From Candidatus Omnitrophota bacterium (GTDB lineage Bacteria; Omnitrophota; Gorgyraeia; Zapsychrales; Zapsychraceae): 64,000 nucleotides of DNA. Positions 18,717 through 26,740 of the stretch are shown here, piece by piece. Both the position numbers and the translations under genes were made by a program. Positions within the stretch are counted from its first letter, which is position 1, and each line of letters opens with the position of its first letter. A model generated the notes under the pieces. The model made no database searches, was not told the origin of the DNA, and saw nothing but the letters and a program-made list of their open reading frames with translations. The DNA lies in the NCBI GenBank assembly GCA_035292445.1, contig DATDQB010000010.1:67563-131562 (forward strand), given 5' to 3'.

Positions 18717-19886
18717 TTATAAATTTGCCTTTACCGGTAGGGAACGGGCATGCCCGTTCCCTACGTTGAATAATTCCGATTTATAATTTTCCAAAAATTC
18801 ATTTTGAAACGCTTCATAACGATCCGCCTCGATCGCCGCGCGGATTTCCCGCATTAAATTAACATAAAACAGCACGTTATGGTACGAAATTAAATGCAGT
18901 GCCGTAATCTCGTTCTGGTTCAACAAATGGCGGATGTAGGCCCGGGTATATTTCTTGCAGCAAATACCTTCGCAGGTAGGGTCGATAGGGGTAAAATCGT
19001 TGGTGAATGTGGCGTTGTTAAGGTTTATTTTTCCTGCTTTGGTAAAAGCCGCGCCGTGGCGACCGTAACGTGTCGGGATACAGGTGTCGAACATATCGAT
19101 GCCCATGCCGACGGCCTTGACGATCTGGTCCGGCAAGCCAATGCCCATAAAGTAACGCGGCTTATCCGAAGGCAGATGCGGCATGAGCCAATCAAGCGTT
19201 TCGAACATGTCCTTGACCGGCTCGCCCACGCTCACCCCGCCGATGGCGTAACCGTCAAAACCGATATCAAGGATCTCTTTGACCGACTGCAACCTTAAGT
19301 CCTCATAGGTTGCGCCCTGGATAATACCAAAGAGCGATTGCTTAAACCTGGAAGGATGTTTCTTGAAATAATCTTTGCAGCGCTTGGCCCACTTTGTCGT
19401 GCGTTCGACGGCCTTTTGCGCTTTCTTGCGTTCACAGGGATAAGGCGCGCATTCATCCAGGCACATGATCATATCCGCTCCCAGGGTTTGCTCGATTTTA
19501 ATGACGTCTTCGGGAGTGAGAAAATGCAGCGAGCCGTCAATGTGCGAGCGGAATTTGACGCCTTCATCGGTAAGCTTGCGGAATTTGGTCAAGCTGAATA
19601 TCTGGTAGCCGCCGCTGTCTGTTAAGATTGGAAGCTCCCAGTTCATAAACCTATGGAGCCCGCCCGCCGCTTCAATGACCTCCATCCCCGGGCGAAGGTA
19701 TAAATGGTACGCGTTGGAAAGAACGATCTGCGAATTAACCGCACGCAAATCCTCAAAGGTCAACGACTTGACCGTCGCGTTGGTGCCCACGGGCATGAAA
19801 AACGGCGTTTGGACCTCGCCGTGAGCGGTTGCCATCACCCCGCGGCGGGCATTTGTTTTTTGATCTTTCTTTATTAACGTGAACAT
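18717..19886 (-). CDS. tgt: queuine tRNA-ribosyltransferase
   Basis: 389 aa. TPFFMPVGT and the zinc-site CCxxC pattern. The last codons contain a 28-nt perfect palindrome. Confidence 0.95.
   Translation of the reverse strand: MFTLIKKDQKTNARRGVMATAHGEVQTPFFMPVGTNATVKSLTFEDLRAVNSQIVLSNAYHLYLRPGMEVIEAAGGLHRFMNWELPILTDSGGYQIFSLTKFRKLTDEGVKFRSHIDGSLHFLTPEDVIKIEQTLGADMIMCLDECAPYPCERKKAQKAVERTTKWAKRCKDYFKKHPSRFKQSLFGIIQGATYEDLRLQSVKEILDIGFDGYAIGGVSVGEPVKDMFETLDWLMPHLPSDKPRYFMGIGLPDQIVKAVGMGIDMFDTCIPTRYGRHGAAFTKAGKINLNNATFTNDFTPIDPTCEGICCKKYTRAYIRHLLNQNEITALHLISYHNVLFYVNLMREIRAAIEADRYEAFQNEFLENYKSELFNVGNGHARSLPVKANL
18736..18763. repeat. 28-nt perfect palindrome gtagggaacgggcatgcccgttccctac (GTAGGG...CCCTAC family), inside tgt 3' end
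   Basis: Read directly. It encodes the tgt C-terminal GNGHARSLP and shares 10-nt half-sites with the palindrome at 20891-20916. Confidence 0.85.
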
Positions 19887-19893
19887 TTATTCC

Positions 19894-20466
19894 TTATTCA
19901 CTTACATCCTCGGCCGCGGTTTCAGTTTCCTCGGATTTTTCTTCAGGAGTTTCTTCAAGAATTTCATCAGAAGTTCCTTCAAGATTTTCTTCAAGAGCTG
20001 CTTCGGGAGCTTCTACCAAGGCTTCTTCCGCGGGCTGCGCTGGTTCGACCGTCGGCTCAACAACTTGCTCTACAGCCGGCTCAACAGTTGGCTCAACGGC
20101 TGGCTCAACAACTTGCTCATCACTTAGAACGATTGTCCCTTCCACATCGGCCTGTGTTTCGGCAGCAACGGGTTCTTCCACAATGATGGGTTCAACCAAA
20201 GCAGGCTCAGTGACGCTGGCAGCCGGTTCTATAAGCTCAAGGACCGGGGCTGAAGGCTCTTCAACCGGTGCTGCTTCTCCAACATAAGAAATCTCATCCG
20301 TCCTGTAGGTATGGTTGACCCCTCCCACATCAAGGGTGACGAACCCATCAGTCTTGGCCACCAACTTTCCCTCAAGCCGCCGGCCGTTTTTCAATATCAT
20401 TACTTCACCGAAAGCTTGCTGGACGAACAAACCAAGAAAAATAACCATCAATAACCCTTTTCTCAT
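19894..20466 (-). CDS. secreted acidic repeat protein (hypothetical)
   Basis: 190 aa. N-terminal signal/TM, a small beta-rich domain, then VEPxVEP and E/P/V-rich repeats encoded by imperfect ggctcaac tandem DNA repeats. AAGGAG RBS 6 nt upstream. Eight nt upstream of tgt. Confidence 0.6.
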   Translation of the reverse strand: MRKGLLMVIFLGLFVQQAFGEVMILKNGRRLEGKLVAKTDGFVTLDVGGVNHTYRTDEISYVGEAAPVEEPSAPVLELIEPAASVTEPALVEPIIVEEPVAAETQADVEGTIVLSDEQVVEPAVEPTVEPAVEQVVEPTVEPAQPAEEALVEAPEAALEENLEGTSDEILEETPEEKSEETETAAEDVSE

Positions 20467-20539
20467 ATGAACTCCTTTTTATTTTTAATGATTTCACTAA
20501 CATCATTTCCGTATGTGTCCCAAGGACTTCTTAGTATAT

Positions 20540-20581
20540 AAAATTAAAACAAAAAAAGCCAAAGGAATTAATTCCTTTGGC
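20540..20581 (-). terminator. intrinsic terminator downstream of the tRNA
   Basis: Perfect palindrome gccaaaggaattaattcctttggc (20558-20581), followed on the minus strand by a UUUUUUUGUUUU run. Confidence 0.6.
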
Positions 20582-20596
20582 TTTTTCCGTCGTCTA

Positions 20597-20650
20597 ACGG
20601 GCCTGACTAACGGAATTGGATAAAGCTCCTATCTGCTGATATAAATATCG
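20597..20650 (+). other. degenerate inverted partial copy of the adjacent tRNA (acceptor/D/anticodon-arm half)
   Basis: gggcctgactaacggaattggataaAGCTCCTATCTGCTgat aligns with tRNA positions ~1-40. There is a 14-nt exact match agctcctatctgct in opposite orientation to the intact tRNA. A second shorter copy (cctatctgc acggttg) sits at 20701-20726. Confidence 0.6.
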
Positions 20651-20737
20651 CACGCCCCCTTAATTTTGTCAAGCAGAGATTAAAACGAGAGTGCGCTTTA
20701 CCTATCTGCACGGTTGACCTGCGCATTCTCTATATAA

Positions 20738-20810
20738 CGGCCCCAGCGGGAATTGAACCCGCAACCACCTATTTAGCAGATAGGAGCTCCATCCATTGAG
20801 CTATGGGGCC
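20738..20810 (-). tRNA. class-I tRNA with anticodon GCU and tRNA-Arg(UCU)-like identity features (isotype ambiguous: Arg-like body, Ser AGY anticodon)
   Basis: 73-nt cloverleaf folded by hand: 7-bp acceptor GGCCCCA/UGGGGCC, discriminator G73, D-arm GCUC-AAUGGAUG-GAGC with A20, anticodon stem CCUAU/AUAGG, loop CUGCUAA (U33, G34-C35-U36), 5-nt variable loop, T-arm GCGGG-UUCAAUU-CCCGC. No CCA is encoded. There is no long variable arm, so it is not a canonical tRNA-Ser. Confidence 0.8.
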
Positions 20811-20831
20811 GCTATATTAATTCTTATTGCA

Positions 20832-20883
20832 ATCAAAAAACAAAAAAATCCCCCACAAAATCGAGCATGATTTCATGGGGGAT
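20832..20883 (-). terminator. intrinsic terminator upstream of the tRNA / downstream of the GIY-YIG gene
   Basis: Stem auccccca/ugggggau (20848-20855 and 20876-20883), followed on the minus strand by UUUUUUUGUUUUUUG. Confidence 0.55.
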
Positions 20884-20890
20884 ATAAATG

Positions 20891-20916
20891 TAGGGAACGG
20901 TCGCGACCGTTCCCTA
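20891..20916. repeat. 26-nt perfect palindrome tagggaacggtcgcgaccgttcccta
   Basis: Read directly. Half-sites TAGGGAACGG and CCGTTCCCTA are identical to those of the palindrome at the tgt 3' end. Confidence 0.85.
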
Positions 20917-20947
20917 TCGAAAATTAAAACCGTTGGGGGCGGTGATT

Positions 20948-20976
20948 ATATTAAATAAACTTGATTACCCTGTCAA
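20948..20976 (-). promoter_or_regulatory. sigma70-like promoter candidate (TTGACA - 17 nt - TAATAT) on minus strand
   Basis: On the minus strand: TTGACAgggtaatcaagtttattTAATATaatcacc. A consensus -35 with a 17-nt spacer. It points toward the palindrome, terminator and tRNA. Confidence 0.35.
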
Positions 20977-21043
20977 CAGAATTAATTCGGGTTACGTCGT
21001 GTGTCCCTTTCTATTTCCTTCTATTTTTCCCGTTGTTCCTTTT

Positions 21044-21517
21044 TTATTCCGAATTATATTTTGGATTCAACAAATCAATTAATATAGCCTCAATGATTCT
21101 TGCTTTCCTTACCGTTTCTATTTCAACAGTCTTTACATAACACTCATTCAAGAAATAATCACGTAATTTATCAATATTTGCAGAAAACTTGTCCTCTTTT
21201 AGTAATTTTTTTGAAAAAGTGTGATGAATGTTTTCTAAATCTGTTGTATTGCAAACTAAATCACCTAAACGATAATTTAAGGTATGTCCGCCTTTACCGG
21301 CATGTCCAACATACAAAAGCTTTCCTCCTTTTTCATAAATCGCATAAATCCCAGGTGAACGAAGAATATCTGTCCTTGCCCTCCAATTGGACTTAATAAT
21401 TTCTTTAAAGCTTTGGTAAGGTGCGTTTTCAAAATCCTGAACTTTATCTTTAATAAATTTTTGAATGTTCTCTGAATTATTCATTGCGTTCTGTTCTGGG
21501 ATCTGTTCCAGGGACAT
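21044..21517 (-). CDS. standalone GIY-YIG (UvrC N-terminal-like / URI domain) nuclease with ~45-aa N-terminal extension
   Basis: 157 aa. GIYAIY...(10)...YVGHA...LNYRL...E..EAILIDLLNPKYN matches the GIY-YIG/UvrC-N pattern. The gene is markedly AT-rich (about one-third GC by eye) against a mid-GC background. It starts 5 nt after the queA stop. Confidence 0.75.
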   Translation of the reverse strand: MSLEQIPEQNAMNNSENIQKFIKDKVQDFENAPYQSFKEIIKSNWRARTDILRSPGIYAIYEKGGKLLYVGHAGKGGHTLNYRLGDLVCNTTDLENIHHTFSKKLLKEDKFSANIDKLRDYFLNECYVKTVEIETVRKARIIEAILIDLLNPKYNSE

Positions 21518-21521
21518 GTGC

Positions 21522-22574
21522 CTAAATAATCAACATCCCATCCCCATAACTGTAAAACCGGTACTTCTTTTCGATCGCCTCCCTGTATACTTTCATAATC
21601 AGATCATGGCCCGCGAAGGCGCTTACGAGCATAAGCAGCGTACTGTAGGGAAAATGGAAATTCGTGATCAGGCAATCGACCATTTTAAAGGAATAGCCGG
21701 GATAAATGAATAAATTTGTATTACCCTGAAGGGGACACGTCAAATGCTTCGCATTTGAGTGCTGCTCGCTTCGCTCGCTGCAGTCCCCGGCAACCGTTTC
21801 CAATACCCGGCAGGCAGTCGTACCGACCGCAATCACAGGATGTCCTTGTGTTTTCGCCTGCTGAATCGATTCATACGATTTCTTTGACACCTCATATTCT
21901 TCATGATGCATGCGATGGCGCGTGATGTCTTCTTCCTCAACGGGTTTGAAGGTCCCATAATTGACATGCAAGGTGACATTCAACACCGTATGCCCCTGCC
22001 GCTTAAGCTGCGCAAGGAGCCCCTTGGTAAAATGCAACCCGGCCGTGGGGGAAGCGACCGAACCATCTTTTTTCGCGTAAACGGTCTGGTAATCCGTGCG
22101 ATCCGACGCCTGATCAGGTCTTCGGATATACGGCGGAAGCGGCATGTGGCCGAATTTCCTCAAAAAAGGTTTGATGATTTTCTTATTGAAGCGCACCAGG
22201 CGATTTTCTTTGTCTTTGATCTGGGCGATGAGACTTCCTCCATTAAAATAGATCGGTTCATTGACCTGCAATTTTTTCAAAGGCTTGATCAGCGTTTCAT
22301 AGGTATAGCCGTCAGCCAATCTCTTCAGTAAAAAGATCTCCACCTGCCCGCCTGTTTCGCGTTTTCCGAATAATCGCGCGGGGATGACCTTGCTGTCATT
22401 GACGACCAGGCAGCTTGCGGGCGGTAAATAGCGGCCGATGTTGGCGAACACATCATGCGTTATTTGTCGCGTTGCCCGGTCGATCACCAAAAGTTTGGCA
22501 TCTTCCCTTTTCTTCAAAGGAAATTGCGCGATCAGATCCGGCGGCAACGCGTATCCGAAATCTTCACGTTTCAT
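21522..22574 (-). CDS. queA: S-adenosylmethionine:tRNA ribosyltransferase-isomerase
   Basis: 350 aa. MKREDFGYALPPDLIAQFP start and conserved QueA core. Confidence 0.95.
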   Translation of the reverse strand: MKREDFGYALPPDLIAQFPLKKREDAKLLVIDRATRQITHDVFANIGRYLPPASCLVVNDSKVIPARLFGKRETGGQVEIFLLKRLADGYTYETLIKPLKKLQVNEPIYFNGGSLIAQIKDKENRLVRFNKKIIKPFLRKFGHMPLPPYIRRPDQASDRTDYQTVYAKKDGSVASPTAGLHFTKGLLAQLKRQGHTVLNVTLHVNYGTFKPVEEEDITRHRMHHEEYEVSKKSYESIQQAKTQGHPVIAVGTTACRVLETVAGDCSERSEQHSNAKHLTCPLQGNTNLFIYPGYSFKMVDCLITNFHFPYSTLLMLVSAFAGHDLIMKVYREAIEKKYRFYSYGDGMLII

Positions 22575-23728
22575 GGCTTAACGACCTCGGCCCCGGGATA
22601 GTAAAACCCGAGTATCTCTTTAAAATCAAATCTTTTTCTGGCCATCTTGTTGGCCCCCCACTGGCTCATGCCTACGCCATGGCCCCAGCCCTTTCCTAAA
22701 ACGTCAAAAAAATACCCCTGCATTTCGATGTCATAAAACGTGCTTTTTAATTCATTCGGGCCAATAATGTCGCGGAACTTCCGGCCAGCCACCTTGACGC
22801 TTTGGCCATCGCGGGTTATGAATTCAAGCGTTTTCACGCGCCCACTTCCTGTGCGCTCGATGATTTGTATTTCCTTAATGGCCCCGAGTTTAAAGCCGTT
22901 TTTATTCAAAGTCTCTTGAACGTCTTTGGCACGGAAATTCTTCTTCCAATGAGCATTAGGCGCTCCCAGTGAATAAAGATCGGGTTTCCCTTTTAATGGC
23001 GGCAGATCATGCTCCCACAGCTCATCCACATCCTCCGTGTGCCCACCGGAGTTGGAATGGTAATACGCCGGCAGCACATTCCCTTTGTACGTCAAGATCA
23101 TCCCCTCGGTCCGGCTGGTCGCCGTATTGGTGCGGTAACGCTCGGCCGTTTTGCCGCCGTACACTTGGGAATAAATGTCGTTGGTAACATCGAATTCTTG
23201 GTTCTTATTTTGTTTGATCTGAAACACCGCGTAAGTGCGTGCGGCGACCGCCTGGGCCATCATCGCCTGCATGGGCCAGCGGTCGGTGATCTCGTGGTAG
23301 AGCACCCCGCGCACGTACTGCTCCAGCTCCAGCGTGTTGATAACCAGAAGTTTCTTTCCATCCTTGGCGATCAAGTCGATAAACCCGCGGTAGCGCTGGG
23401 TGTGATCGCCCACTAAGACGCTGATCGTTTTATTGGAGGCGATGCGAAGTTTGCGGGCCGGGTATATCTTTTTACCGACCTGGATGCCGGTATCCTGGAC
23501 GCGCACCCGAGAATTCCTTAAGACCCGCCCTTCATCCAATATCTCATTGGTTACCAGATTGATGATCTGATACCGCCCGCGGCTGGCCACCACCGTATCC
23601 AAAGCCCCTTTTAAAACGGCGATGCGGATCTGTTTCTCGGCGGAACGGGAATCTTGGATAAAAATGATGCCGGTCAATGATGCCACCGCGACCAGCATCA
23701 ACAGCGTTCTTTTTAGCGTTGGTTCCAT
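22571..23728 (-). CDS. SpoIID/LytB domain protein (amidase enhancer family)
   Basis: 385 aa with signal peptide. SpoIID-type motifs (YYHSNSGGHTEDV, GHGVGMSQWGA). Confidence 0.8.
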   Translation of the reverse strand: MEPTLKRTLLMLVAVASLTGIIFIQDSRSAEKQIRIAVLKGALDTVVASRGRYQIINLVTNEILDEGRVLRNSRVRVQDTGIQVGKKIYPARKLRIASNKTISVLVGDHTQRYRGFIDLIAKDGKKLLVINTLELEQYVRGVLYHEITDRWPMQAMMAQAVAARTYAVFQIKQNKNQEFDVTNDIYSQVYGGKTAERYRTNTATSRTEGMILTYKGNVLPAYYHSNSGGHTEDVDELWEHDLPPLKGKPDLYSLGAPNAHWKKNFRAKDVQETLNKNGFKLGAIKEIQIIERTGSGRVKTLEFITRDGQSVKVAGRKFRDIIGPNELKSTFYDIEMQGYFFDVLGKGWGHGVGMSQWGANKMARKRFDFKEILGFYYPGAEVVKP

Positions 23729-24986: not shown

Positions 24987-25763
24987 TTAGGATGCCTCGG
25001 GCGGCTGATCCTCGGGATCTGAACTGTCTTTGGGCAAGATATTCTCTCTGTTCCTTAAGATCTCAATGGGGCCGAACACTTCCTGCTGGATCACTTTGAT
25101 CTCCTGTAACCGGATGAGCTCCAAGATAGCGAGGAAGGTAACGACGACCTCGGTGCGGCTGCGGCATTTCTTAAACAGATCGTTGAGCGCCAGCGAAGAC
25201 GCTTCCAAAAGAGCGTGCAAAAGATCGTGAACCTTGTCATCAACCGTGTACTTATCATCAATGATCTCATGAATAATTTCCTCCGGAAGCTTCTTGAGCG
25301 CCTCGGAAAAGGCGTTGATCAAATCAAAAAGGTTGACTTCCAAAAGAACCTCTTTGGCGTCTTCTTTGAGCTGTTCGCGCGCCACTTCATCAACGAAGCG
25401 AGAGAAGAAATCACGGCGCAGCTTTTCTTTGTCCTGAAGGGTGTCGGCGATCTCTTTGAATTTCTTGTATTCCAACAAACGACGGGCCAGTTCATCGCGG
25501 GGGTCTTCTTCCTCTTCCTCCTGCAGGGTCGGGTCCGGGGGAAGGAGCATTTTCGACTTGATATGCATCAACGTCGCGGCCATGACCAGAAAGTCGCCGA
25601 CGATATCGAGATCGAGGATCTTCATCAACTCGATATATTCCATGTACTGTTCGGTGACCAAAGCTATAGGGATATCTTTGATGTCGATATCATTCTTCTT
25701 AATAAGATACAAAAGAAGATCCAACGGCCCTTCGAAAAGATCTAATCTGAGTTTATATTTCAT
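24987..25763 (-). CDS. scpA: segregation and condensation protein A
   Basis: 258 aa. LDLFEGPLDLLLYLI N-terminus typical of ScpA (kleisin). Confidence 0.85.
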   Translation of the reverse strand: MKYKLRLDLFEGPLDLLLYLIKKNDIDIKDIPIALVTEQYMEYIELMKILDLDIVGDFLVMAATLMHIKSKMLLPPDPTLQEEEEEDPRDELARRLLEYKKFKEIADTLQDKEKLRRDFFSRFVDEVAREQLKEDAKEVLLEVNLFDLINAFSEALKKLPEEIIHEIIDDKYTVDDKVHDLLHALLEASSLALNDLFKKCRSRTEVVVTFLAILELIRLQEIKVIQQEVFGPIEILRNRENILPKDSSDPEDQPPEAS

Positions 25764-26740
25764 CCGAAAACAACCTTTCGCACCTCTTGCATGGTCTTTG
25801 AAGCGATTGCTGAAGCCTTGTTCCGGCCTTCATGAAGAATGTCTTTCACCTTTGCTTTGTTCCTGACAAGCTCCACCCTTTTCTCGCGTATACTTTTAAG
25901 CGTCTCAAGCAACCCTTCCGCCATGATCATCTTGCAATCCGTGCACCCCTTTTGCGCCTTCGTGCACCAGTTATACACCTCTTTGGCCTTGCCGGGGACA
26001 AAGACATTATAATAGCTGTAGACATTGCATTTGTCGGGATGGCCCGGATCCGAGAGTTTGATGCGCTTGGGGTCCGTGAACATGCCCTTCACCTTTTTCT
26101 TGAGCTCTTCTTCGGAATCGGATAAATTGATGGCGTTTTGGTAGCTCTTGCTCATTTTACGGCCATCCACTCCCAACAGCCTCGGGGTTTCGGTCAAGAT
26201 AGGCTTACAGTCATGAAAAAGATCGGTTTTATAAATATGGTTAAAACGCCGGGCGATCTCGCGGGTCAATTCCAAATGGGGCAGCTGATCCTCTCCGATA
26301 GGGACCGCATCCGCCTTATAAAGTAGTATATCAGCCGCCTGCAGGACTGGGTAGCCCAAAAATGCATATGTTTGGAGGTCTCTTGTTTTTATTTCCCGCA
26401 ATTGCTCCTTATAGGTAGGATTTCGCTCAAGCCAGCCTAAGGGGGTGATGCAGCTAAGCATCATGGCCAGCTCTAGATGCTCGGGAACATGGGATTGGAT
26501 AAATAGGATGGACTGTTCGGGGTCAATGCCGCAGGCCATCCAATCAATGGCCATCTCAACGATGCTCTCGCTGATGTCGCGGCTTTGCCCGTATTCGCCC
26601 ATGAGGGCGTGCCAATCGACGATACCAAAAATGCACGAGTGAGTTTTCTGAAAATTGACCCAATTCTCCAAAGCACCGACAAGATGCCCCAGGTGCAATT
26701 TTCCTGTCGGGCGCATCGCGCTGAAAACCGTCTTTCTCAT
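25760..26740 (-). CDS. trpS: tryptophan--tRNA ligase
   Basis: 326 aa. Class-I HIGH (TGKLHLGH) and KMSKS motifs. Confidence 0.95.
   Translation of the reverse strand: MRKTVFSAMRPTGKLHLGHLVGALENWVNFQKTHSCIFGIVDWHALMGEYGQSRDISESIVEMAIDWMACGIDPEQSILFIQSHVPEHLELAMMLSCITPLGWLERNPTYKEQLREIKTRDLQTYAFLGYPVLQAADILLYKADAVPIGEDQLPHLELTREIARRFNHIYKTDLFHDCKPILTETPRLLGVDGRKMSKSYQNAINLSDSEEELKKKVKGMFTDPKRIKLSDPGHPDKCNVYSYYNVFVPGKAKEVYNWCTKAQKGCTDCKMIMAEGLLETLKSIREKRVELVRNKAKVKDILHEGRNKASAIASKTMQEVRKVVFG

Follow-up and report, generated by a model that had tools for sequence, protein, structure and literature searches.

Why should a bacterial genome carry a transfer RNA (tRNA) that is built like an arginine acceptor and bears a serine anticodon? 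This question is raised by a tRNA gene in a 64-kb stretch of DNA (the window, throughout) from the metagenome-assembled genome (MAG) of an Omnitrophota bacterium, where the gene is the sole tRNA of the window and lies in an insertion between queA and tgt. An earlier reading of the same DNA (the initial annotation) had pointed out the conflict between tRNA body and anticodon. The feature that most constrains the interpretation is absent from that reading: beside the tRNA lies a predicted small RNA (sRNA) gene which is antisense to the anticodon arm, and such tRNA–sRNA pairs, called modules below, were found at 18 further loci (n = 19 with the window). The sRNA is proposed, tentatively, to mask a potentially mistranslating tRNA.

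An Arginine-Type tRNA with a Serine Anticodon

The tRNA gene (positions are given in Table 1) was recovered by the Rfam tRNA model at full length (73 nt, 68.3 bits, E 9e-13, read from 20810 to 20738). By parts, its 5' half reads GGCCCCA UA GCUC AAUGGAUG GAGC U CCUAU CUGCUAA and its 3' half AUAGG UGGUU GCGGG UUCAAUU CCCGC UGGGGCC G, and the full RNA is GGCCCCAUAGCUCAAUGGAUGGAGCUCCUAUCUGCUAAAUAGGUGGUUGCGGGUUCAAUUCCCGCUGGGGCCG. All four stems are Watson–Crick throughout, and U8, A14, G18G19, A20 and U33 are in place together with the T-loop UUCAAUU, a variable loop of 5 nt (UGGUU) and G73, while CCA is not encoded. The clean class-I cloverleaf of the initial annotation is thus borne out, on the minus strand. 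The anticodon, nt 34–36, corresponds to window positions 20777–20775 and stands in the loop CUGCUAA. ARAGORN likewise returned the anticodon gct, as had been anticipated; its name for the gene, 'tRNA-Ser (gct)', is given by anticodon alone, and its call spans 75 nt (20737–20811, one extra base per end) because leader and trailer lengthen the acceptor stem. In the precursor, leader pairs with trailer and this stem has 14 instead of 7 bp; the extension is not seen in other modules and might slow processing by RNase P or RNase Z.

Four further assemblies, from three ENA samples and one JGI metagenome, show no difference from the window over the tRNA and the 39 nt that flank it on either side. These assemblies represent one near-clonal population (99.94–100% identity) and, therefore, back the base call only, not evolutionary conservation or selection. 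A one-base sequencing error at G34, which the initial annotation had kept as an option, is ruled out by this identity.

The bacterial arginine identity set comprises A20 as the main determinant, C35, U/G36, A/G73, G2-C71 and C3-G70, and does not include position 34 (PMC9976931). The complete set is present in the window tRNA, with A20 directly after G18G19 in the D-loop AAUGGAUG, C35, U36, G73, G2-C71 and C3-G70. When viral contigs were scanned for the D-arm UAGCUCAAUGGAURGAGC with any anticodon, arginine anticodons were found in 121 of 121 tRNAs (102 UCU, 11 ACG, 3 UCG, 3 CCU and 2 CCG), and an equally anticodon-blind scan with acceptor strand plus D-arm gave eight metagenome loci, namely seven UCU tRNAs and the GCU tRNA of this organism. 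The body of the window tRNA is arginine-type, as initially annotated. The likeness to E. coli argU given in the initial annotation was also correct when compared with NC_000913.3 (D-arm AGCUCAGUUGGAUAGAGC, loop CUUCUAA). In K-12, argU (564723–564799, locus L231), a tRNA-Arg(UCU), lies at the DLP12 prophage junction and adjoins intD. With BLAST, the annotated phage tRNAs that matched the window tRNA were of several isotypes (Arg, Asn, Met and Gly) at about 75% identity, and E. coli gave no hit, so that this comparison was uninformative.

The anticodon is not used by SerRS, and GCU thus confers no serine identity. The long variable arm, by contrast, is present in tRNA-Ser of all organisms except animal mitochondria (PMC9976931). 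With its 5-nt loop the window tRNA is not of this class II type, and recognition by bacterial SerRS is not expected, in line with the missing long arm noted at the start. By the codons it reads, AGC and AGU, the tRNA is therefore outside functional tRNA-Arg, and by its variable arm it is outside tRNA-Ser, although it has a serine anticodon. If made and charged, it would be expected to act as an Arg-tRNA reading AGC and AGU.

The meaning of these codons was examined by aligning 20,392 codons of window genes with the syntenic genes of three Omnitrophota relatives. AGU aligned with Ser in 51% and AGC in 42% of cases, compared with 50% for UCN, while Arg accounted for at most 4% with either AGU or AGC. 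AGY codons make up 381 of the 20,392 codons (1.9%). Hence AGY is serine in this Omnitrophota genome, under the standard code, and codon usage points to a canonical tRNA-Ser(GCU) elsewhere in the MAG. A changed genetic code with AGY reassigned to Arg is ruled out by this codon-by-codon comparison, and local recoding within the genes of the insertion itself was rejected as well, since the AGY positions of its GIY-YIG gene carry no Arg signal. Because AGY is serine, an Arg-charged GCU tRNA would mistranslate.

An Antisense sRNA Gene beside the tRNA

About 100 nt 3' of the tRNA and on the same strand lies the predicted sRNA gene of about 95 nt. Its near-consensus promoter consists of TTGACA, a 17-nt spacer and GATATT with TG ahead of the -10, and the -10 ends 6 nt from AGCAG. 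The sRNA opens with AGCAGAUAGGAGC, has a fold z of -5.1 and is predicted to end at a terminator with a 20-bp stem (20591–20548) and a U run. The seed pairs with tRNA nt 36 back to 14, that is, over the anticodon, the 5' strand of the anticodon stem and the 3' half of the D-arm, and its 23 nt give 20 Watson–Crick pairs, 2 G-U pairs and 1 mismatch. The first 14 nt are the exact complement of tRNA nt 36–23, including G34, C35 and U36. The computed cofold gain of the tRNA with its own sRNA is -19.9 kcal/mol, in comparison with a mean of -0.5 for the sRNAs of other loci. Moreover, the opposite strand of the seed region aligns with tRNA nt 1–41 as a degenerate inverted copy (score 38, against 25 +/- 3.3 and a maximum of 36 for shuffles), and the seed probably derives from this copy.

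In addition, an upstream transcription unit or leader was predicted ahead of the tRNA, with the promoter TTGACA-17-TAATAT (20976–20948), a perfect hairpin (20916–20891) and a terminator-like hairpin plus U run (20883–20848) that ends 37 nt before the tRNA. This unit could be an sRNA in its own right or a leader that attenuates the tRNA, and may limit read-through into it. Permissive Rfam scans assigned no family to the window sRNA, to this upstream leader or to the sRNAs of seven module loci. As a side observation, a second and shorter complement of the anticodon arm, GCAGAUAGG at 20703–20714 (minus strand), pairs with nt 27–35 within a spacer hairpin between the tRNA and the sRNA promoter, and is not significant alone (expected about 0.08, an estimate). 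An invertible switch was also considered and discarded on inspection of the sequence, since inversion between the repeats yields no tRNA 3' half. The 'decoy or regulatory tRNA' that the initial annotation listed among its options pointed in the right direction, but was tied there to no evidence.

Recurrence of the tRNA–sRNA Pair

Arginine-type tRNAs with GCU anticodons were searched for in 185,579 species genomes, using the Arg-type D-arm, CUGCUAA and a short variable loop as the pattern. This genome scan gave 64 loci over many phyla and the viral scan 16 loci, and ARAGORN reported tRNA(gct) in 57 of these 80. Of about 80 GCU tRNAs, 10 are followed on the same strand, at a distance of 42–113 nt, by an exact 11-mer complement of their own nt 26–36, and two or three more by a complement with one mismatch. 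The chance expectation of the exact 11-mer is about 7e-5 per locus, and no such complement, exact or with one mismatch, was detected beside any of 129 ordinary Arg tRNAs. With a local-alignment version of the test, the maximum for ordinary Arg controls was 21, while the modules scored 26–39.

The complement is not confined to one gene order. At five loci (L031, L037, L066, L067 and L083) it is convergent on the opposite strand, and at L070 it lies upstream on the same strand; at each of these six loci the predicted transcript has AGCAG at its 5' end and runs antisense to the tRNA. With the downstream arrangement on the same strand this makes three gene orders, all of which keep the antisense polarity and the 5' seed, and this points to action in trans. 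A scan blind to the D-arm, based on CUGCUAA, the T-arm, TTGACA and AGCAG at set spacings, gave two more viral contigs, in each of which the seed complements the stem of the contig's own tRNA and the tRNA has A20. The same scan with UCU/AGAAG gave none, though UCU tRNAs are far commoner in that collection. Viral sequences were also scanned for the same anticodon stem together with the T-arm, for modules with a 4-nt variable loop and for convergent modules, with no match in any of the three cases.

In all, eight or more bacterial phyla were found to have the pair, on mobile DNA. Apart from Omnitrophota (the window), the hosts are Acidobacteriota (5), Gemmatimonadota, Chloroflexota (2), Actinomycetota (2), Elusimicrobiota (a tandem pair), Vulcanimicrobiota and Saccharimonadia (3), together with three viral contigs. 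Module tRNAs score 58–72 bits on the tRNA model. The neighbourhoods of the modules are typical of the mobilome, and no protein genes common to the modules were found within +/-4 kb. L044 is located between terminase GpA and lambda-type portal genes, in a phage late-gene region; L031 and L037 adjoin an IS1595 transposase, L083 a phage integrase, L022 a DUF5131 gene and L066 a DnaD/HTH protein gene; the window module belongs to an insertion that splits an operon and includes a GIY-YIG gene. Microsynteny of L044 with the window was dismissed, as it comes down to the universal tig-clpP pair. In L050, a unit of 858 bp that comprises tRNA, sRNA and hicB-hicA is duplicated in tandem.

Several observations on sequences around these loci may be added. 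In L050 (1190–2330, minus strand) the tRNA–sRNA units are bracketed by a 16-nt near-repeat, TAGGGAC(A/T)GTCCCCAT, followed by hicB-hicA, and the upstream hairpin of the window, TAGGGAACGGTCGCGACCGTTCCCTA, opens with TAGGGAAC, similar to this near-repeat, which may be coincidence. Over the 90 nt ahead of the tRNA, the Acidobacteriota loci L038, L073 and L044 have in common a conserved 5' leader, which runs up to the tRNA with TTGCT(C/T)AAT as its last bases and is preceded by a promoter-like TTGTAA...TATAGT.

Evidence for Selection on the Pairing

Over six variable positions, each sRNA has 0–1 mismatch to its own tRNA and about 3.9 mismatches to foreign tRNAs. In the alignment of tRNA nt 24–36 with sRNA nt 1–13, 95% of the cells are paired; columns 27–36 of it served to pick the segments, so that pairing counts there are circular. 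The pair at nt 26, which was not used for picking, is formed in 18 of the 19 modules, with four pair types and eight double changes. The seed duplex is 13–32 nt long across the 19 modules. Compensatory double changes in tRNA and sRNA were also seen within two pairs of loci, L038 versus L073 and L031 versus L037. The former two belong to Ca. Acidiferrales and have a neighbour gene in common at 83% identity. The latter two are Saccharimonadia, and their common neighbour (59% identity) is the IS1595 transposase gene, which may reflect a mobile element and not a vertically inherited gene order.

Predicted promoter elements are found where such sRNAs would need them. Counted by script, at least 14 of the 19 modules have a -10 of the TAnnnT type that ends 4–9 nt before AGCAG, and on visual inspection nearly all do; an exact TTGACA occurs 16–18 nt farther upstream in nine modules, and predicted terminators follow after 30–100 nt. 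Thus, on the predicted sRNA signals, the two genes are adjacent, have separate promoters and share extended complementarity, as in toxin–antitoxin (TA) pairs. Taken together, the pairing between tRNA and sRNA is very probably a real and selected feature.

Proposed Mechanism

ArgRS, which reads A20, C35, U36 and N73 and does not read N34, would charge the tRNA with arginine, and the charged tRNA would pair with the serine codons AGC and AGU. The single-stranded 5' end of the sRNA (AGCAG and the complement of the anticodon stem) would nucleate on the anticodon loop, AGCAG pairing with C32–U36, and would from there displace the strands of the anticodon stem and, in the case of the window, also those of the D-arm. 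The anticodon loop would thus be the toehold from which the sRNA opens and covers the tRNA. The duplex would hide the anticodon together with C35 and U36, allowing neither charging nor decoding, and where it reaches about 20 bp or more it might be cleaved by RNase III. If the sRNA level dropped, the stable tRNA would be freed and arginine would enter at serine AGY codons. Engineered mistranslating tRNAs have been reported to be lethal on accumulation in yeast (PMC6125640).

The split AGN box and the blindness of ArgRS to N34 mean that one base change turns tRNA-Arg(UCU) into a radical missense tRNA that would still be charged. A short sRNA that restrains a stable tRNA, both being carried on mobile DNA, follows the logic of a TA or abortive-infection cassette. 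The reading preferred here, a tentative one with a chance somewhat short of even, is that the anti-tRNA sRNA masks a potentially Ser-to-Arg mistranslating tRNA under such a logic. The broader proposal of a new RNA-only class of addiction or abortive-infection systems, with a tRNA as toxin and an sRNA as antitoxin, spread by prophages, insertion sequences and small insertions over nine or more phylum-level groups, is possible but doubtful. The sequences show an intact Arg-type tRNA in a genome where AGY is serine, an sRNA gene by its signals, and complementarity that recurs and covaries; arginine charging, pairing in vivo, toxicity and a role in addiction or defence are inferred.

Several points weigh against the masking of a toxic tRNA. 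The window tRNA has G in place of the near-universal A21; G21, which was found in 0 of 121 Arg-type viral tRNAs and in 2 of 65 GCU-type genomic tRNAs, could weaken tRNA folding or ArgRS recognition. The terminator-like hairpin stands between the sole recognizable upstream promoter and the window tRNA, so that very little of the tRNA may be produced. Strand invasion is also difficult where the target is a tRNA that is folded and modified. Among the genomic GCU loci, only about 15 of 64 (about a quarter) have the sRNA, and the promoter pairing, terminators and sRNA ends of the modules are predictions. CUGCUAA was prescribed by the search patterns, as was the Arg D-arm in most cases (L229 and L230 being the exceptions), and conservation of those features within modules is, therefore, largely by construction; in addition, the control tRNAs came from viral and metagenome sets, while most modules came from the genome collection.

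Alternative Explanations

The gene could have an ordinary function in decoding, the tRNA serving as the organism's serine AGY decoder charged by SerRS, or AGY having been reassigned to Arg. Anticodon GCU, G73 and the ARAGORN label would suit the serine decoder, but the absence of a long variable arm and the Arg-type body contradict it, and the absence of the gene at this site in relatives, together with AGY aligning with Ser and not with Arg, makes either version scarcely credible. A regulated and non-selfish form of mistranslation or local recoding, with the sRNA as an ordinary repressor rather than an antitoxin, draws on the same structural evidence as the preferred reading (Arg body, seed complementarity and recurrence), and has a natural parallel in the dual-identity tRNAProX, which also has the rare G21 (PMC10404621, PMC11415595); one module even lies within a phage late-gene region. 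Such regulation is nevertheless improbable, given the sporadic, mobile-element-linked spread with no conserved protein partner, the absence of the module from the nearest relatives of the window organism, and the lack of an Arg signal at AGY in the GIY-YIG gene and in housekeeping genes.

The tRNA might also deliver no amino acid at all and act as an uncharged A-site decoy (stalling or stringent response), as an sRNA sponge or target, or as a processing site for RNase III or RNase P. Transcripts linked to tRNAs that sponge sRNAs are known (3'ETS-leuZ), and G21, the 14-bp acceptor stem and the upstream terminator of the window are atypical of a working tRNA. On the other side, the Arg identity set, the tertiary bases save A21 and the perfect stems have all been kept, module tRNAs score like tRNAs, and the seed always covers the anticodon and covaries with the neighbouring tRNA and with no other sequence, which makes a non-delivering tRNA rather unlikely. 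Finally, the locus could be evolutionary debris, namely an inserted copy of tRNA-Arg(UCU) with a U34-to-G change, its complement being a decaying inverted duplication or an att scar. Arg-bodied GCU tRNAs are indeed sporadic (64 loci in the 185,579 genomes), many of them lack a detectable sRNA, the plus-strand copy in the window resembles a degraded tRNA 5' half, and tRNA genes are common integration sites. However, att scars left by integrases repeat the 3' part of a tRNA and not nt 24–36, whereas the repeat here comprises nt 1–41 or 24–36 of the 5' side, lies 42–113 nt away and has antisense polarity. Debris is also hard to reconcile with 19 independent modules that have exact seeds and compensatory covariation, with promoter and terminator correctly placed in each gene order and antisense polarity kept on flipping, with the absence of the complement beside 129 ordinary tRNA-Arg genes, and with a tRNA that is intact while its inverted copy is degraded, and is accordingly considered very unlikely.

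The Insertion between queA and tgt

Table 1. Positions of the tRNA–sRNA module of the window and of the insertion that carries it.
Feature	Position	Strand	Evidence
tRNA gene, Arg-type body, anticodon GCU	20738..20810	minus	Rfam tRNA model, ARAGORN, anticodon-blind scans
Precursor acceptor-stem extension, leader + trailer AUAUAGC...GUUAUAU	20731..20817	minus	Inverted repeat I14, fold
Sigma-70-type promoter of the antisense sRNA	20644..20672	minus	Promoter scan, 10/12 match
Predicted anti-tRNA sRNA: 5' seed, internal hairpin, intrinsic terminator	20541..20637	minus	Fold, terminator scan
sRNA seed AGCAGAUAGGAGCUUUAUCCAAU	20615..20637	minus	Inverted repeat I1, duplex table
Degenerate inverted copy of tRNA nt 1–41, CUGCU kept	20600..20643	plus	Local alignment
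Predicted upstream transcription unit or leader, ~95 nt	20848..20976	minus	Promoter/terminator scan, fold z = -5.7
Lineage-specific insertion, ~1.6 kb	19887..21521		queA/tgt adjacent in L074, L076, L078; lower GC
157-aa stand-alone GIY-YIG nuclease-domain protein	21044..21517	minus	Pfam, homologue family profile
190-aa predicted secreted protein, acidic P/E/V-rich repeats	19894..20466	minus	Translation; directly before tgt

The insertion is flanked by queA (21522–22574) and tgt (18717–19886), and its GC content is 0.40–0.46, compared with about 0.49 for the whole window. The QueA protein of the window has a 100% match that bears the name Candidatus Omnitrophota. Three Omnitrophota relatives (L074, L076 and L078; QueA about 63% identity) have queA and tgt about 50 bp apart with no tRNA, in the order NusA-IF2-TrpRS-ScpA-RuvB-SpoIID-(SSB)-QueA-Tgt-TrmD-L19-RNase HII. 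The low-GC insertion splitting queA from tgt was thus rightly recognized in the initial annotation. Conserved synteny of the tRNA at this site does not hold, queA and tgt being adjacent in the relatives, nor is there an ordinary tRNA-Arg(TCT) in them, which had been envisaged as an outcome, because these nearest relatives lack any tRNA at the site.

The contents of the insertion are the GIY-YIG gene, a non-coding stretch of 577 bp with the tRNA, and the gene of the 190-aa protein. No open reading frame (ORF) is present between 20467 and 21043, and no integrase in the insertion. The GIY-YIG gene directly follows queA and is appended to the end of its transcription unit. Its product scored 18.8 bits with Pfam GIY-YIG, below the cut-off of 22.6, and a word-indexed protein search with it returned only the self-match. 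The family, however, includes 43 homologues with invariant Y69, G71, R83, H99, E143 and N155, its profile matches the GIY-YIG domain of UvrC (8e-8) and T4 endonuclease II (7e-4), and the ORF has the GIY...YIG motifs and the conserved Arg, Glu and Asn of the superfamily. A link between tRNA and nuclease was rejected, since no tRNA was found near the homologues of the nuclease elsewhere. The GIY-YIG gene is not a conserved partner of the tRNA–sRNA pair, and tRNA and nuclease are probably independent passengers. An apparent truncation of the nuclease in some strains proved to be a gene-calling difference on identical DNA. The 190-aa secreted acidic-repeat protein had no match in Pfam or PHROG.

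As for the rest of the window, the large ORFs (about 60) are all on the minus strand. An SSB gene located between spoIID and queA in the three relatives is absent from the window (21522–23728), where the spoIID and queA ORFs overlap. The TrpRS-type gene at 25760–26740 belongs to the operon conserved in the relatives. A c-di-GMP-I-GGC riboswitch aptamer is present at 357–503 on the minus strand (RF03167, 61.4 bits, the gathering score being 59); its second stem bears a long insertion, and the aptamer lies upstream of the 588–1199 region on the same strand.

Related tRNA-Like Loci

Related elements without a detected sRNA partner were also observed. In one deltaproteobacterial MAG, L015 and L071 are identical copies of a GCU Arg-type tRNA with the rare G21, and no antisense seed was detected within 1.5 kb of them. 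Six loci, mostly from Alphaproteobacteria (L048, L056, L061, L062, L063 and L065), form a covarying GCU tRNA-like family with an acceptor stem of about 5 bp, and no antisense partner was detected within the locus for any of them. Another group of conserved tRNA-like elements has the Arg-type D-arm, CUGCUAA and an intact T-arm, while the 3' acceptor strand is replaced by A/T-rich sequence (CTTGAAAAT, CTTGATTAT and CAGCAAATT). Such elements were found in Bacteroidota (L039, L046 and L049), in Clostridia (L019, L025, L052 and L082) and in 12 viral contigs (L079–L081, L084–L086, L088, L089, L091, L092 and L094), and most of the viral copies were not accepted by ARAGORN. These elements could represent att-site junctions or a tRNA-like RNA of a separate kind.

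Significance and Comparison with Known Systems

Searches of the literature on Arg-bodied GCU tRNAs, on toxic or anti-tRNA RNAs and on tRNA-based defence found nothing relevant, and in the literature searched and in Rfam no tRNA with a dedicated anti-anticodon sRNA has been described. If the pairing works as proposed, the module would be, within the same scope, the first natural dedicated sRNA against a tRNA anticodon arm and the first candidate for a tRNA that serves as a controlled poison, and mistranslation would join the mechanisms of TA systems and phage defence. It would also explain the recurrent Arg-bodied GCU tRNAs that are annotated as 'tRNA-Ser' or as isotype mismatch, and would show how the split AGN box and the indifference of ArgRS to position 34 can be exploited. 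As well, the pair would be a compact and programmable switch for conditional missense incorporation. Even without a toxin role, a covarying tRNA–sRNA pair is a conserved RNA–RNA interaction that needs explanation, and annotation pipelines should not name such genes tRNA-Ser.

Among natural tRNAs, a close counterpart is tRNAProX with its synthetase ProRSx (PMC10404621, PMC11415595), a bacterial tRNA of sporadic distribution whose body has one identity and whose anticodon reads the codons of another. It differs in that it needs a co-encoded synthetase paralogue and has A33 or A34, and no antisense RNA has been described for it, whereas the window module has no conserved protein partner and retains U33, and the ordinary ArgRS should suffice for charging, N34 being unread. 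Engineered toxic tRNAs are similarly anticodon-swapped, keep their charging identity and are lethal on accumulation, but are synthetic, based on tRNA-Ser, made for yeast and controlled by tRNA decay (PMC6125640).

Among RNA-based addiction systems, type VIII CreTA (PMC8501985) resembles the module in its adjacent small RNA genes with their own promoters, in its combination of poison and neutralizer, as proposed for the module, and in its association with mobile or defence-linked DNA; moreover, CreT also acts via the arginine AGA/UCU decoding system. CreT, however, is mRNA-like and sequesters a host tRNA, and CreA acts through Cascade on DNA. The hok/sok pair, a type I RNA toxin–antitoxin system, resembles the module in the same general features. 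In type I systems the toxin is a small peptide, most often of the membrane, whose mRNA is bound by the antitoxin, while in the window the target is a tRNA within an ORF-free stretch: a tRNA would here take the place of the toxin, and the putative antitoxin would pair directly with its anticodon arm. T-box leaders are also RNAs that pair with an anticodon by a codon-like triplet and are followed by a terminator. They differ in pairing only with the anticodon (plus one base) and the NCCA of a folded tRNA and in preceding genes for aminoacyl-tRNA synthetases or amino-acid metabolism, whereas the complementarity of the modules spans 13–32 nt and reaches into the stems, and the genes that follow are of unrelated kinds; no T-box was matched when the window region and seven module loci were scanned permissively with Rfam. 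The ordinary tRNA-Arg(UCU), such as argU, is also close to the module tRNA, with the same D-arm type and A20, the same anticodon loop save position 34 and a short variable loop, and it is often phage-borne and found at prophage ends. What sets the module tRNA of the window apart is G34, which shifts decoding from AGR (Arg) to AGY (Ser), together with G21 and a dedicated antisense sRNA.

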